Source: Dictyostelium discoideum (lineage: Eukaryota). From it: a stretch of 64,000 nucleotides of DNA. The translations under genes and the position numbers were made by a program. The DNA is taken from positions 2,752,001 to 2,816,000 of the forward strand of contig CM000150.2 of the NCBI GenBank assembly GCA_000004695.1. Direction: 5' to 3'. Under the pieces are notes generated by a model, which saw only the letters and a program-made list of their open reading frames with translations, ran no database searches and was not told where the DNA came from. Position 1 is the first letter of the stretch. Each line of letters begins with the position of its first letter. Shown here piece after piece: positions 39,078 to 60,227 of this stretch.

Positions 39078-43119
<4,042 letters not shown>

Positions 43120-43743
43120 TCTATCTAAGAAATCTATATAAAAAAAAAATATAAAAATGATAATTGAAAATATGTGGATTTGTGAAAATATAAAAATATA
43201 AAAATATAAAAAAAAAAAAAAAAAAAATTGCGCAATATCTTGATATTTTAAGGAAAAAAAAAAAATAGAAAAAATAAAAAAAAAAAAAAGAAAAATCCGC
43301 AAAAAAAAAAAAAAAAAAAAAAAGACAAGAAAATTTTAGGATTGAAAAAAAGAAAAATGTATATACATAACTAATTATTATTCTTTTAAATGAGATATTT
43401 TTTAAACATTGTATATACATTTTTCTTTTTTTTACCTTTTTGAAATTATATAAAAAAATTTAATATATTTTAAACTTTTGGGAATCCTATTATTTATTTT
43501 TTAAAACAATATATTTTCCTGAAAATGTTTTAGTTTATTTTTTACCTCTATGAGATTATATAAAAAAATTAAATGTATCCATAGTTTTTAAAATTAAATA
43601 TATTTAATTAAATATCCATAATTTTTAAAATTAAACCATTTTAAAAAAAACAAATCAAATACAAAAAAGTTTAAAAATTAAAAAAAAGAAATTTTTTTTT
43701 TAAAATTATTATAAAATGCTATTTATTAAGAAATATTATTTAT

Positions 43744-45105
43744 TTATTTCTTTTTTGATGGGGCAGCAGCACCTTTCTTATCACCGGCTTTACCTGGGGC
43801 TTTCTTGACGGTTGATTTGATGACACCGACGGCGACGGTTTGTCTCATATCTCTGACGGCGAAACGACCTAATGGTGGGTATTCAGTGAAGGATTCAACA
43901 CACATTGGACGAGATGGGGTTAATTCGACCATAGCGGCATCACCATTCTTTAAGACGACGGCGGCAGTACCTTCTTTGGCAACGACGGCACCAGTACGAC
44001 GATCAACTTTATCGACGATTTCAGTGAATTTACAGGCAATGTGAGCAGTGTGACAATCTAAGACTGGTGAGTAACCAGCATGGATTTGACCTGGATGGTT
44101 GAGGACGATAACTTGAGCAACGAATTTTTCAGTTTCTTGTGGTGGATCGTTTTTGGAGTCACCAGCGACCATACCTCTTTTAATTTCTTTGACTGAAACG
44201 TTTTTAACGTTGAAACCTACATTGTCACCTGGACGGGCTTCTGGGAGTTGTTCGTGATGCATTTCGACTGATTTGACTTCAGTTGAGAGACCAGCTGGGG
44301 CAAAGGTGACGACCATACCTGGTTTAATGATACCAGTTTCGACACGACCTACTGGAACAGTACCGATACCACCGATCTTGTAGACATCTTGTAATGGAAT
44401 ACGTAATGGTTTATCGTGTGGACGTTTTGGTTCGACGATGGCATCGAGGGCTTCTAATAAAGTTGGACCTTTGTACCATTCCATTTTGTCGGATCTTTCT
44501 AACATGTTATCACCATTCCAACCTGAGATTGGGACGAAGGCAACTTTTTCTGGATTGTAACCAATCTTTTTGATGAAAGATGAAACTTCCTTGACAATTT
44601 CGTCGTAACGGGCTTGTGAGTAGTTGGTTGATTTTTCATCCATCTTGTTGATAGCAACGATCATTTGTTTGACACCTAAAGTGTAAGCAAGGAGAGCGTG
44701 TTCACGAGTTTGACCGTTTTTGGCGATACCAGCTTCGAATTCACCAGTTGGGGAGGCAATGACTAAGACGGCACAATCGGCTTGGGAGGTACCAGTAATC
44801 ATATTCTTGATGAAATCTCTGTGACCTGGGGCATCAATGATGGTGAAGTAGTATTTGGAGGTTTCGAATTTCCATAAAGCAATATCGATGGTGATACCTC
44901 TTTCACGTTCAGCCTTTAATTTATCCATAACCCAGGCGTATTTGAAGGATTGTTTACCCATTTCAGAAGCTTCCTTTTCATACTTTTCGATAACTCTCTT
45001 ATCGATACCACCACATTTGTAGATTAAATGACCAGTGGTGGTTGATTTACCAGCATCTACGTGACCAATGACGACAATGTTAATGTGAGTTTTCTCTTTA
45101 CCCAT
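43744..45105 (-). CDS. efaA: Translation elongation factor 1-alpha (eEF1A/ABP-50), intronless.
   Basis: The 453-aa ORF begins [46 protein letters not shown]... and has the GTP-binding motifs [14 protein letters not shown] and NKMD. The locus is relatively GC-rich with strong codon bias. Which efaA paralogue it is cannot be told from the sequence alone. Confidence 0.95.
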
Positions 45106-47519: not shown

Positions 47520-47986
47520 TTATTGCCATGGTTTAATATTATAGTTTACAAATAATGAACCGGTTGGAAATGGTGGTATTTTATAATAACTATTGAAAAT
47601 TGGGTGTAAAACACGAGCAGCACCATCAAGACAAGTTAATGGAATTGGATAGAATCTTCTAGCTCTTTTACTTCTAACTTTAAAATCTTTATCAGTAACT
47701 GGACCCATATCACTAACCCAACCGGTATTGACTGAAGAAACATGAATATTTCTTTTCTCTAAAGAGGCACTAATTGATCTTGTCATCATATTTAGTGCAG
47801 CTTTTGCCATATTAGTATGAACGTGATTACCACTTTGATTATTATAATCATAATCAAAATCACCTTCTGATGATGTAACATTTACAATATAACCCCAATC
47901 TAATTTTGATACTGTTGAATTGTTATTATTATTATTATTGCTATTATTATTATTTCTAAAATTATTATTATTAAATCTATTTGATC

Positions 47987-48059
<73 letters not shown>

Positions 48060-50510
48060 TAATGATTTTCTTTCCATTAGAGGTATTAATTGAGAAACAA
48101 ACATGGTTGGTACAATTGAATTTACTAAATTAACTTCACCCATTTCAACAGTTGAAATTTCATCAATTTGTGAAGTCCAACTTGTTTTATTTCTCATATC
48201 TAATGGTTCACCATGTTGATCATATTTTTCAGATGGGAATAGAATTTCATTTCTATCATCATTATCTTCTGGTAATAATGTACTTTCAATGATTGAAGTT
48301 GAAGAAGAACCACCAAATTTAATATCATTAACTCTAACTAAAACCATTGATTTGTCAGAATCACTATCACTATCTGATGCATTGATAATTTGCATATCAT
48401 CATCAGACGATATCTCTTGAAATTGATCAATCATTTTATCGGTTTGATTAGTTAATAAAAGTTGTTTAATTTCCTTTTCACCGGTTAACAAACTATGATA
48501 ATATGCTTTTGGTCTACGAATTGTTTGAGCAGCATTATTAATTAAAATATCAATTCTTGGGAAATTTGATTTTATATGATTTATAAATTCTTGAACAGCA
48601 GCAATACTTCTAAAATCTAAACCATAGATATGTAAACGTGATAAAATATCAGGATTTGAAGAGAACCTTTCTTTAAATGCTTCATTTGCAAGATGTGGGA
48701 ATCTTGTAGTTGCAATTACATTATAACCATAACCTAATAACAATGCAGCACATTCAAAACCAATTTTGATTCTAGCACCAGTTACCAATGCATATTTTTT
48801 ATTTAATAAATTGAAATCTTTAAATAAATTTTCATCAAATTCTGTACGTGAGAAATCATTAAATTCATTACACTCTTTACAAAGACTTGATGGTACCATA
48901 TCAAGTTTTGAATACATAATTTTCTTTTTACAAATGTAACAACTTATTAAACCATTTACAGTTAAGCATGAAATTTTCCAACAATAATCTTTTATTGGAC
49001 CAAATTTTGTAAAGCTACCAATTAAATCTGGATTTAAAATTTCATGAATTTCTTTAGCCAAGAAACGGGGTTTAAAATTTTTACGTAAAAATTCCAAAAT
49101 TCTTGACATTGGTTTAAATTGAACATGATGAAATGGAATTGAAGTATATTTTTCATATTTTTCAGAAATTGAATTTCTTGCAACACAACGATCCAAATGT
49201 TTACAATATTCAAAGTTTTTACATTGAAAACCTCTAACAGAGTATTTTTGAGAACGTTCCATCTTTGTTGTTACCAAAATTGTTCTATTATTAAATGCAA
49301 TGGCAGAACGTGGAATCATTTTAACATTACTACCATTATAACAAATTGCTGTACAATCTAAATCACAAAATATTAAATGTTCTTCAACATTTTTTGAAAA
49401 TAATGTAATGATTTGAATTGGTCTAAATTGATCACCAATAATTGTAATTGAATTTGGTGTACGTATAAAACGATAGGAATATTCATTTTTATCAATCCAT
49501 TGTTTAATTTCAATTAATAATGATTCAAGTTTACTTTCACCCATTTCAATTGTTGGTGCTGTAATAATGATATCGATATCTGATTCTGATTTTTTAAATT
49601 CTTTTTTTATTTTTGTTTGAAATTCATATTCAACAGTTTCATTGGAAAATTGTAATTTCGATTTCATTTCATCATAAAGTTTAATATATTCCAATGGTAG
49701 AGTTTCAATACATGTTACTAATGCACCACCAATTAAATATGCATTTGCTTCATTTTCATTACCATTACCAAAGGTTATATTATCTGAAAGGCCAAATGAC
49801 ATTATTGAAAGAAGTTGTTTAACAATTTCAATATTTGATGCTAATGAAAGTTCACCATACTCTGAGCCATGAATACCACGAGCTCTTGATGATATATGGT
49901 ATCTACCAATTTTTGATAATTTGAAATCATCTGGATTTTTAATATTACCTTGTTGGTTCTCTAAATCATAGACATCAAATGAATGATCTTTAACTTTTTT
50001 ATAAATCCTTTCACTAATTTCATAATCTTTACTTTCATCCATATTATTACATGCTTCATCAATATAGGCTGATCTAATCTTTAATAAATCTAATGATAAA
50101 ATTGAATCATGCAAATCTGTATTAAATAATAAATCTTTTTCAATCCAACATTTTTCATTCTCTTTTGAATTTTCTTCAATAAATTTATCAACAACACATT
50201 TAAATACTTGAGCAACTTTATCATCTAATTTAATATAAACTAAAAATAATTGAATAATTGTTACAACATCTTGAGTTTTACAATTTTTATTATTTGAAAA
50301 ATTTTCTTTAAATTTTGTATAAATTTCTTTAATATAACAATATGATTTATCAAATAAACTTTCTTTTTCACCATTATTATTATCATTATCAGTTTTATCC
50401 TCGTCTAAATATAATTTAGCCATATCTTTAATAAAAATATCATAATTTTTACCATCAATCATAAAACTTCTATATTTTTCATTATTATTATTATTATTAT
50501 TATTATCCAT
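47520..50510 (-). CDS. Large (996 aa) protein with a C-terminal short-chain dehydrogenase/reductase (SDR) Rossmann domain and an unassigned N-terminal half that includes a Cys-rich segment.
   Basis: KKYALVTGARIKIGFECAALLLGYGYNVIATTRFP is a TGxxxxIG nucleotide-binding motif. NNAA is present. The SDR domain is interrupted by an (AAT)n-encoded poly-Asn run of about 25 residues. The active-site region reads HTNMAKAAL rather than the canonical YxxxK. Confidence 0.6.
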
Positions 50511-51383: not shown

Positions 51384-52805
51384 TTATATATTGGTATTAT
51401 TATTATTTAAAAAATAACCATTTTCAAAAGGTGAAATTTGAGGAAATAAAAAATTTAAAGTTTTATCAATTCTTTTTAAAATTCTATTATTGAATGTTTC
51501 AAAGTTATCATTTAAACAAGTTGTTTTAGGTTTATATTTTAAAGAGGTTATTAATTTTAAATATTGACGAAATTGTACATTTTTTAATGGTATTAATCTA
51601 TTGAAACCAGGTTTAACTTGAAAAGTACTATACTTTCTTGTGAATTGATTAGCAGTGAATGAAAATTGTAAATCCTTTGGATCTCTAAATCTATGAGATG
51701 AAGTTTCTTCAACCTCTTCTTCTAATTTCTTATAAATTAATTTCAATATCTTTTTATTCAATGGTAATACACCATGATCACTTCTATATCTTTTCGATTT
51801 AAACCAAAGTTTATCCAATACCCTATTAGTATTTATCATACTTGTATAATGAATACTGCCTCTTGTACCATTTTCATAGATTTCAAAATCACTTGATATT
51901 TTATGTTGTCTTTGAAATATATATGGATTAAAATTTTCATCATAAAAATCACTTGGTAAAACTGGATTACTAAAATAAATATCATCATTTAAATATAAAA
52001 AACAATTTGATACTCTTTTTGGTAAATTAAATAAATTAATTTCAATTGAATCTGAATTAAATGTTGGTAAATGTGATCTATAAAATTTAAAATTATTTTT
52101 AATTAACATGTGTGTGTCTGTATATTTTATTTATTTATTTTTTTTTTTTTTTTTTTTAACTTACTTATTTTTATAAAGTTCAGAATGAAATATAAATTCA
52201 ACATTATCATCAATAGTTGATGTATTGAACCATGTAGGTATTTGATCAGCAGTTACTATGAAAATTTTTCTAACCCATGGTGCATTTTTACGAACACTTC
52301 GTAAAGAATACTTTAAAATACCATAGTCTCTATATCTACCTTTTGTAATACTTTCTAATCTATCATTGTAATCAACATATTTTATATATTTTTCAATATT
52401 AACAGGATCTGATCCATTAACCCATGTATAAACAATATCAATATGTTTACAATCTGATTTAAATGGTTTAATTCCTTGTTCTCTTAAAAATATATTTTTA
52501 GTTTTTTTTTTTTTTTTTCCTATTAATGATGATTCTTCTTTTTTAAATAAAGTATTTGATGTTTGTTCTATTTCAACAATTTCTTTTTTTTTTTATTTTT
52601 TTTTATTTTTTTTTTTTTTGGAAATTTTGGTGGGGTTAATATAAGTTACTAGAATGTGGTAAGATATTTTTAGAAAAAAAAAAAAAAAAAATATTGTTTA
52701 GGTACCTTGTAAAAATTCAAAACTTGTCATTGAGATTATTGTTATAAAAACTAAAAATAATACAATAGCAATTGTTTTAAATCTCCATTTTAGTTTATTT
52801 ATCAT
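51384..52805 (-). CDS. Stealth-family protein (bacterial capsule/GlcNAc-1-phosphotransferase-like; CR1-CR4). Exons 52706..52805, 52165..52480 and 51384..52077.
   Basis: Exon 1 encodes the TM anchor MINKLKWRFKTIAIVLFLVFITIISMTSFEFLQ/. Exon 2 carries CR1 DIVYTWVNGSDP and CR2 LKYSLRSVRKNAPWVRKIFIVTADQIPTWF. Exon 3 carries SHLPTFNS...FLYLNDDIYF, CR3 HYTSMINTNRVL and the CR4 region. The donors are G|GTACCT and AA|GTAAGT, with acceptors AAGAG| and TTTTATAG|, and the phases are consistent. The ATG that opens listed ORF 51384..52109 lies inside intron 2. Confidence 0.65.
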
Positions 52806-52877
52806 TTTAATATTTTCATATAAACTAAAAAAATAAAAATAAAAATAAAAATAAAAATAAAACAAAACAAAATAAAA

Positions 52878-52910
<33 letters not shown>

Positions 52911-53065
52911 AAATAATTAAAAAATTAAAAATAATTAAAAAAATTAAAAAATTAAAAAAAAGGAAAAAGAAAAATCAAATGAAAAACGAAAAGTTGCAAC
53001 GATATTTTTATTTTTGTTTTTGGGTTTGTTGGATTTTTTCATTTTTTTATTTTTTTATTTTTAGG

Positions 53066-53318
53066 TTCAATTACTAGTCGGTTACAGATTTTCTTACATA
53101 ATTTTCATTATTACCCATATTGTAAAGAAAATCAATATGAGATTTAAAAGCAGCATAAAATGTTGGTTGAATATTATAATGTACATCATACTCATCACAA
53201 ACCTTTTTAATAATTGGTACTAATTCACCATAGTATTCTTGTGAAATTGATGGAAACTATTATCATTATTATTATTATTTTTTAAAAAATAAAATATTAA
53301 AATTAATAAAACTATTTC

Positions 53319-53349
<31 letters not shown>

Positions 53350-54555
53350 AAAACTTACCAAGTGATGAACAACTTGTAAATTTACACCACCCGAAAAAAA
53401 TAAACACATATATGAATTAATACCATAATCTTGAGTAGTTTTAATTTGATGAATTGCCCAATCTTCATCAACATTTGTTGGTTCATCATTTTCATTTACA
53501 CTTGTTGCAACAATTTTTAAATTATCAGCAGAATGACTAACTTGGAAACCAAAGGATAAATAAAGACCAAAAAAGAATTCAGCGATAAAGAAATAAGTTA
53601 ACAAGTTTACTAAACTATGATATTGTAATGGTATGATGAATCTAAAAACAATGAAAACCAATTTACCAATGATAAAAGAGATGATTTCAAAATTTGAAGC
53701 ATTTGCAGTTCTAACCCTTCCAATTGAACCCTCTGTGAAAACACTATAATCACATAATCTATATTTAATCGAATATAGACCATACAAAAATGGGGCGTAT
53801 ATATGCTGATATTTATAAATCCAATATTTATTTTGGTATGGTGTTACAATTCTAAAATCAACTTCACTATCGCCAATATCCGGATCTGCATTTCTAATAT
53901 TTGTATACACATGATGACCAATCACATGCTGATTACACCAATAAAAGAACGAGGCACCAATGAATAGATCGTAAGTGGCGCCTAGCCATTTCCATACTTT
54001 TGGATTATGAGAGATCGCTGAATGGCACGCATCATGCATCATATGTAATGAGAATAGACTATTGGATAATGAATACACAATTGCAAGTAAACAATTTAAA
54101 TAGAAATTTTCAATGAATGCATAATGGCTAACATAATAACTTGTAATTAAAAACCAATAAACAAATATTAATCTTGCTATTATACCAAATGCAAATTTTG
54201 GATCTTTATTTGACTTTTTAAAATGCTCTCTAACTCTTTCTTTTAATGTTGAATAGAATTTACTTTTTTCAACATATTTTGGGAATTCCATTGTTGAAAC
54301 TTGTCCAATTTCATATTGTTTTAACATTTTACTTGGTAAATCTGTCATTGGGTGATAACTTTCAAATAAATTTGTAACATCTCTACCTGCTGCTAATATT
54401 AAAACTTGTTCACCTCCTGGATGATGTTTTATAAATTTTGTAATATCATAAACTAAACCATCAATTGAAATCCAAATTCCATTTTCAATTGTATTATGTT
54501 TTGAAATTTCTTTCCATGAATATAATTTTTTAAATAATTTTTTCTCGTTTTCCAT
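53066..54555 (-). CDS. Cytochrome b5-fused front-end fatty-acid desaturase, of delta5-desaturase type (one of the two D. discoideum fad paralogues). Exons 53359..54555 and 53066..53257.
   Basis: It has the cytochrome b5 heme motif HPGGE and His boxes HDACH and HVIGHH. The third His box QVVHHL|FP spans the GTAAGT (53358)...ATAATAG (ends 53258) intron. The spliced product is 462 aa. Confidence 0.85.

Positions 54556-59288: not shown

Positions 59289-60227
<939 letters not shown>

Follow-up and report, generated by a model that had tools for sequence, protein, structure and literature searches.

The stretch of DNA analysed here, a 64,000-nucleotide (nt) window of the Dictyostelium discoideum genome, carries on its minus strand, at positions 51384-52805, a gene with three exons that corresponds to DDB_G0270528 (gpt2) of strain AX4. 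Its translation, with intron 1 taken as 52705-52583, was identical over 403 amino acids (aa) to XP_001134468.1 / UniProt Q1ZXQ6 in an exact-sequence look-up, and the window therefore represents AX4 chromosome 1; the 22% GC content of the window and its open reading frames (ORFs) with poly-Asn tracts fit Dictyostelium, and the GC content of the gpt2 exons is 19-25%. By the same identity, it is a listed member of the gpt family: Table S5 of Sucgang et al. 2011 (PMC3188802) enters DDB_G0270528 under the name gpt2, with the description "putative glycophosphotransferase". Ten gpt genes (gpt1-gpt10) are counted in D. discoideum and 3 in D. purpureum, whose orthologues were assigned only to gpt1, gpt5 and gpt10 (PMC3188802). 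We conclude that the locus is gpt2, most probably encoding a single-pass type II Stealth membrane protein of 403 aa that would act as a sugar-1-phosphate transferase.

An earlier note on this DNA, made from the sequence, had described a minus-strand gene running from an ATG at 52805 through a stop codon at 51384-51386 and had held that splicing is needed to recover it, and in both respects it was right. Its implication that the gene had been missed by annotation was not, as the gene has borne the name gpt2 since at least 2011; the AX4 annotation and the 2011 comparative-genomics tables already cover the gene, its place in the family and its splicing. The protein of about 370 aa that it had proposed does not agree with the annotated product of 403 aa, since it drops 34 residues of the stem, and the corresponding 369-aa product (acceptor at 52481) had no exact match among 15 billion proteins.

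The evidence for a Stealth protein comes from profiles, conserved residues and a structural model. Of the conserved regions (CRs) that make up the Stealth domain, CR1 (PF17101) scored 41.7 bits (cutoff 27.2; E = 9e-11, residues 80-104), CR2 (PF11380) scored 136.5 bits over the full length of the profile (cutoff 39.4; E = 5e-40, residues 116-223), and CR3 (PF17102) scored 49.3 bits (cutoff 24.2; E = 4.5e-13, residues 274-319). Spacers of 11-50 residues separate the CRs. The claim that all four regions are present was thus borne out at the level of Pfam thresholds for CR1-CR3. With 22.4 bits, the region of CR4 (PF17103; residues 356-394, TTCLNDN...FPQISPFE) fell short of its gathering threshold (27.4), which is a point against the assignment. 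However, the CLND/CIND tetrapeptide by which CR4 is defined (Sperisen et al.) is kept as CLND at residues 360-363, and the region was modelled with a predicted local distance difference test score (pLDDT) of ~94; CR4 is present but divergent. Two of the motifs that the earlier note had listed as the third and fourth regions have to be reassigned, as FLYLNDDIYF belongs to CR2 and RYRSDHG opens CR3.

The residues N203, D204, D205, H274, R304, D308, C360 and D363 are each at least 90% conserved in an alignment of 116 sequences, with D204, D205, H274 and R304 near-invariant, and the conserved residues of gpt2 align with the LNDD motif, the catalytic His and the SSHRxR motif of zebrafish GNPTAB. 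The corresponding residues of human GNPTAB are catalytic: Mg2+ is bound by D407 and D408, the base is proposed to be H956, and the phosphate is stabilised by R986 (PMC9388126). An AlphaFold2 model built from the 116-sequence alignment had a mean pLDDT of 89.3 and a predicted template modelling (pTM) score of 0.83. Foldseek searches of the PDB with this model gave catalytic domains of GNPTAB as the best matches (7sj2, E = 1e-25), and CpsY of Mycobacterium tuberculosis (8j2n) was matched with a template modelling score of 0.86 and a root-mean-square deviation of 2.7 Å. The catalytic domain of gpt2 is accordingly modelled as a GT-A-like Stealth fold.

In a Pfam scan of the gpt2 protein only the four Stealth regions were found, and no Notch, DMAP or EF-hand modules; NCBIfam, a prokaryote-oriented library, gave no match for the protein. 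The sole hydrophobic segment, residues 11-29, follows K4, K6, R8 and K10, and five N-x-S/T sequons lie downstream of it, on the predicted lumenal side. This arrangement fits a predicted type II topology in which the catalytic domain would face the lumen. The description of a Stealth-only, single-pass, type-II-like membrane protein therefore stands, with Stealth regions only in Pfam and one hydrophobic segment, and so does that of exon 1 (52805-52706) as the exon of the transmembrane (TM) anchor, with its basic N-terminus. Exon 1 is 91-100% identical to its counterparts in four related taxa. Intron 2 (52164-52078) was likewise correctly recognised, with GTAAGT...ATAG boundaries, a length of 87 nt and 11.5% GC. 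The features of the gene and of its surroundings are collected in Table 1.

Table 1. Features of gpt2 and its surroundings, in positions of the window
Feature	Position	Strand	Description
Exon 1	52706..52805	minus	100 nt; start codon 52805-52803; ends in codon phase 1
Predicted signal anchor/TM segment	52775-52719 (residues 11-29)	minus	Encoded by exon 1; follows the predicted cytoplasmic tail MINKLKWRFK
Intron 1 as annotated	52583..52705	minus	123 nt, GTACCT...AAAAAG
Exon 2	52165..52582	minus	Stem region, CR1 (52445-52371), start of CR2 (from 52337)
Disputed stretch	52481..52582	minus	102 nt, stem residues 34-67, EIVEIEQTSNTLFKKEESSLIGKKKKKTKNIFLR; codon 34 split with exon 1
Coding A17 run	52518-52502	minus	Encodes KKKKK, inside the disputed 102 nt
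Intron 2	52078..52164	minus	87 nt, GTAAGT...TTTTATAG, 11.5% GC; interrupts CR2
Exon 3	51384..52077	minus	Remainder of CR2 (to 51927), CR3, CR4; stop TAA 51386-51384
N203-D204-D205 codons	51989-51981	minus	Exon 3, CR2
CR3	51776-51639	minus	Exon 3, with H274 and R304
CR4	51530-51414	minus	Exon 3; CLND at 51518-51507
G/C-containing island	52962..53003	minus	ATCGTTGCAACTTTTCGTTTTTCATTTGATTTTTCTTTTTCC; ~160-200 nt upstream of the gpt2 ATG, in homopolymeric surroundings
Delta5 fatty acid desaturase C (Q1ZXQ5)	53275-54555 + about 53075-53250	minus	459 aa; Cyt-b5 + FA_desaturase
996-aa ORF	47520-50510	minus	Short-chain dehydrogenase domain only at residues about 572-668
Other neighbours	39078-45105 + 59310-60227		Ankyrin + myotubularin-related phosphatase, 1136 aa; eEF1A, 453 aa; four-repeat polyubiquitin, 305 aa

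The end of intron 1 is where the earlier note and the AX4 annotation part. The note had placed it at 52481, ~100 bases too far downstream when compared with the annotated end at 52583, and six in-frame AG acceptors lie within the interval in dispute. We compared the DNA of AX4 with that of another D. discoideum strain (L003), D. cf. discoideum (L002), D. dimigraforme (L001) and D. citrinum (L004), and judged the coding status of the disputed 102 nt by conservation of the frame, by the phase of insertions and deletions (indels), and by the loss of AG; the ratio of nonsynonymous to synonymous substitution rates (dN/dS) was not used as support. The coding frame is the only stop-free frame of the 102 nt, with four stops in each of the other two, and it is open in all five taxa. 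In the alignment of AX4, L003, D. cf. discoideum and D. dimigraforme, the only indels in the disputed segment are of 3, 3, 6 and 3 nt, whereas those in the undisputed part of intron 1 are of 1, 2, 7, 8, 9, 10 and 15 nt, and those in intron 2 range from 1 to 19 nt. Identity to D. dimigraforme is 77% in the disputed segment, 61% in both intron cores and 89-91% in the exons. The A17 run in the segment is equally long in three taxa, and its interruption in D. citrinum leaves the length unchanged; intronic homopolymers, in contrast, vary freely in length. Moreover, the site in D. citrinum that is homologous to 52583 is a canonical ATATAG acceptor. The curated AX4 protein contains the segment, as does every other annotated orthologue: those of D. 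dimigraforme (401 aa) and D. cf. discoideum (378 aa), and the fusion models from an old MetaClust entry and from two strains of D. discoideum. An exonic nature of the 102 nt, with the acceptor at 52583, is consistent with the annotation and with this five-taxon comparison.

Some observations weigh against this placement of the acceptor or deprive it of support. The stem segment has a dN/dS of at least 1, so its residues are unconstrained, and its amino-acid sequence is therefore no evidence for coding status; the segment was modelled at a pLDDT of ~60. The spliced junction of exon 1 and exon 2 (CAATGACAAGTTTTGAATTTTTACAAGAA) had zero matches in JGI metagenome and metatranscriptome contigs, and the acceptor of intron 1 therefore rests on annotation and comparative data. 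Furthermore, an in-frame acceptor at 52568, TAG|A(A/G)CAAACA, is kept in five of the five taxa. Its use would give an intron of 138 nt ending in GAAATAG, an open reading frame and a protein of 398 aa without EIVEI, as the main or an alternative isoform. We consider such a product unlikely, as every annotation uses the upstream site, which is the canonical ATATAG in D. citrinum, and the sole indel in the 15 nt between the 52583 and 52568 sites is one of 3 nt, in D. dimigraforme.

The possibility that the acceptor at 52481 is that of the real mRNA, with an intron 1 of 225 nt (52705-52481) and a protein of 369 aa, was judged very unlikely. Such an intron would have GT...AG boundaries and leave the message in frame and stop-free, its acceptor context (TTTTTAAGAG) is kept in four of the five taxa, and the 34 residues that would be skipped are unconstrained and lie outside the catalytic domain. 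However, D. cf. discoideum has AC in place of the AG at 52482-52481, and use of the neighbouring AAG there would put the message out of frame. The 369-aa product is missing from the protein collection, whereas the 403-aa product is the AX4 annotation, and all annotated orthologues contain the segment that would be skipped. Likewise, the frame-preserving indels of the segment and the fixed length of its A17 run differ from what is seen in the true parts of the introns. The annotated acceptor at 52583 is thus the one that we retain. A reading of the sequence alone, as in the earlier note, can evidently recover a spliced Stealth gene and yet misplace an acceptor in A/T-rich sequence.

The longest listed ORF at the locus (51384..52109, 241 aa) begins MLIKNNFKFYRSHLPTF, and its ATG (52109-52107) sits inside intron 2, exactly as the earlier note had pointed out when it called this ATG a decoy. 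The ATG is ATA in L003 and in D. cf. discoideum, and it is absent in D. dimigraforme; from this comparison it is a chance feature specific to AX4. The expectation that annotation would truncate the gene at this ATG was not fulfilled, as none of the six annotated models starts there. The D. cf. discoideum model (P0123) starts at Met26 (MTSFEFLQ...) and is devoid of the TM anchor, even though the DNA (L002:2426-2525) retains the upstream ATG and an intact exon 1. The TM anchor of this orthologue was lost by annotation, and not through the decoy ATG.

Another kind of model joins gpt2 to the upstream gene for Delta5 desaturase C. Fusions of 869, 870 or 916 aa are predicted by three recent annotations of D. 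discoideum strains and by an old MetaClust entry (P0122, P0125, P0127, P0132), as if gpt2 was translated as a part of a longer protein. In the intron that they require (intergenic 52824-53075, minus strand), the donor, TA|GTAATT, overlaps the stop codon of the desaturase, and TTTTTTAG, immediately before the gpt2 ATG, would serve as the acceptor. However, two separate genes are annotated in AX4, D. cf. discoideum, D. citrinum and D. dimigraforme, and the gpt2 ATG and an island upstream of it are conserved as for an independent gene. In D. dimigraforme, where the intergenic region is ~900 nt, the donor GT is absent (TAGAAA). Because of this missing donor the fusion is probably a prediction artefact, and we regard a translated desaturase-gpt2 fusion as extremely improbable. 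The real annotation errors at the gpt2 locus are in newer assemblies: the fusion with the desaturase, and the loss of the TM anchor through an internal start.

Syntenic orthologues of gpt2, placed between the desaturase gene and a gene of ~1000 aa, were found in D. dimigraforme, D. citrinum, D. cf. discoideum and the other D. discoideum strain. The dN/dS was 0.16-0.23 over the coding sequence and 0.08-0.20 over the catalytic part, and by these values gpt2 is under purifying selection. The ratio of ~0.2 and the intact catalytic residues led us to reject the status of a pseudogene. An RNA gene or a feature of the opposite strand was also rejected, as ARAGORN found zero tRNA genes within the 64-kb window, and the opposite ORFs are short and chance-like.

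To place gpt2 among other Stealth proteins, a neighbour-joining (NJ) tree of 116 sequences was built over 309 alignment columns and assessed by 200 bootstraps; gpt1 was left out of the alignment and the tree. In this tree, gpt2 grouped with its D. dimigraforme orthologue (100%) and then with gpt6-type proteins (88%), and the gpt2/gpt6 group fell inside a clade of dictyostelid and environmental sequences with a support of 82-94%. The next neighbours were Cochliopodium and metazoan GNPTAB-like proteins, with a support of 37% for the join, and named bacteria (Smithella, Chloroflexota, Binatia) were placed further out. The earlier note had suggested a phylogeny as a check on horizontal origin; in the NJ tree the dictyostelid clade adjoins eukaryotic sequences, with weak support, and is not nested in bacteria. 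Its view that the architecture is of a bacterial rather than a eukaryotic type was not upheld either, since short Stealth-only proteins form the 10-member D. discoideum family and occur also across Dictyostelia and in Cochliopodium.

Size and the absence of accessory domains do make gpt2 resemble bacterial Stealth enzymes, and bacterial proteins from metagenome-assembled genomes score about like metazoan ones (E ~1e-37 and 1e-35, respectively), as would be expected if gpt2 was a captured capsule phosphotransferase acquired recently from bacteria by horizontal transfer. However, the gene has two spliceosomal introns and a host-like composition, it belongs to a family of 10 genes with relatives in all sampled dictyostelid groups and in Cochliopodium, and its clade is nearest to Cochliopodium and metazoan GNPTAB-like proteins, with bacteria outside. 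In addition, any transfer between eukaryotes and prokaryotes was judged ancient (Sperisen et al.). The introns, the host-like composition and the placement in the tree therefore give no support for a recent bacterial origin, which we hold to be most improbable.

Upstream of gpt2, the G/C-containing island ATCGTTGCAACTTTTCGTTTTTCATTTGATTTTTCTTTTTCC is identical in L003, nearly so in D. cf. discoideum, and recognisable but duplicated in D. dimigraforme; judging by this conservation, it is possibly a promoter element, a candidate at most. A five-codon upstream ORF, ATGAAAATATTAAAATGA (52802-52819, minus strand), overlaps the gpt2 start as ATGA in AX4 and L003. In D. cf. discoideum a difference of 1 nt puts the upstream ATG in frame (MQNIKMINKL...), and in D. 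dimigraforme the five-codon ORF is absent. In the D. citrinum orthologue (L004:9380-9536) a C-terminal poly-Asn tract of ~45 residues stands in place of the NNNN of AX4, and because of this tract the protein has 445 aa rather than 403 aa. This orthologue is ~90% identical to gpt2, yet it was missed by the homology search and had zero precomputed Pfam matches.

As for the neighbouring genes, the raw ORF of the desaturase enters an intron after VVHHL, and its last exon (FPSISQEYYGEL...) lies downstream. The 996-aa ORF contains extended poly-Asn tracts, much of its N-terminal part is without a Pfam match, and it is syntenic with genes of ~1015-1033 aa in all related genomes. The phosphatase, eEF1A and polyubiquitin genes are of an ordinary housekeeping kind. 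The neighbours (the desaturase, the protein with the short-chain dehydrogenase domain, eEF1A, the myotubularin-related phosphatase and polyubiquitin) give no functional hint for gpt2.

A layout can be proposed for the gpt2 protein and, from its homology to GNPTAB and to the Stealth enzymes of bacteria, a most likely mechanism. The protein would begin with a short cytoplasmic tail of basic character, followed by the signal anchor at residues 11-29; a Lys/Glu-rich stem of ~45 unconstrained residues would then lead to a lumenal Stealth domain, and we infer a Golgi location, enzymatic activity and a nucleotide-sugar donor. A nucleotide sugar, most plausibly UDP-N-acetylglucosamine (UDP-GlcNAc), would be bound via Mg2+ on the NDD motif (D204/D205), and H274 would act as the base that activates the hydroxyl of the acceptor. 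The hydroxyl would then attack the beta-phosphate, stabilised by R304 and the CLND region, so that sugar-1-phosphate would be transferred to form a phosphodiester, and uridine monophosphate would be released. Candidate acceptors are a mannose of a glycan or Ser/Thr of a protein (O-phosphoglycosylation).

D. discoideum makes GlcNAc-alpha-1-P-Ser and Fuc-beta-1-P-Ser; the genes for its Ser phosphoglycosyl transferases were unidentified as of 2005, and the Stealth proteins of Dictyostelium were proposed as candidates (Sperisen et al.). The size of the gpt family was later linked to Ser/Thr glycophosphorylation (Sucgang et al., PMC3188802). That gpt2, perhaps with its sister gpt6, is among the enzymes that start protein O-phosphoglycosylation in D. 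discoideum is a tentative proposal and, in our estimate, a doubtful one. Our evidence is neutral on this role, and the proposal for the whole family is already contained in both of these papers; gpt2 remains a candidate for Dictyostelium O-phosphoglycosylation. If the proposal was true, the expansion of the gpt genes (10 versus 3 in D. purpureum) would underlie species-specific diversity of phosphoglycans.

Within D. discoideum, gpt2 shares with gpt1 (DDB_G0285815) the gpt/Stealth family and a presumed chemistry of sugar-1-phosphate transfer. According to papers that cite Qian, West & Kornfeld (2010), gpt1 transfers GlcNAc-1-P to mannose of N-glycans, the first step toward methyl-phosphomannose, and it is the only family member with demonstrated activity in the literature found. 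A function has been proven for gpt1, which also has a one-to-one orthologue in D. purpureum; neither applies to gpt2, and literature searches on DDB_G0270528 and on gpt2 in Dictyostelium found nothing relevant in main texts. A linker (39/40 aa) attributed to gpt1 (XP_638036) in PMC9388126 had no match in the protein word index; either gpt1 is indexed in another form, or the linker is not a verbatim gpt1 segment. The nearest paralogue of gpt2 is gpt6 (DDB_G0268950), which is also on chromosome 1 and, with its D. firmibasis orthologue, is 55-57% identical to gpt2 and its sister in the NJ tree. The gpt6 proteins (493-552 aa) have a much longer low-complexity N-terminal stem than gpt2, and the AX4 model of gpt6, unlike that of gpt2, is devoid of a part of CR1 and of CR4.

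Outside the dictyostelids, the bacterial Stealth phosphotransferases of capsules and exopolysaccharides, e.g., CpsY (8j2n), are of a similar size and likewise have the four CRs only. SacB/XcbA of Neisseria meningitidis are further bacterial Stealth phosphotransferases. In contrast to such enzymes, gpt2 has two GT-AG introns and a signal anchor at its N-terminus, it does not lie in a capsule operon, and it is not nested among the bacterial sequences in the NJ tree. With metazoan GNPTAB (PDB 7s05, 7s6n, 7sj2, 9bgf), which provided the top structural matches, gpt2 shares the CR1-CR4 catalytic core and the NDD, His and Arg residues. Compared with GNPTAB, it is devoid of the Notch repeats, the DMAP, EF-hand and spacer domains, the second TM segment and the cleavage by site-1 protease (S1P), and its 403 aa compare with about 1250 aa in GNPTAB.

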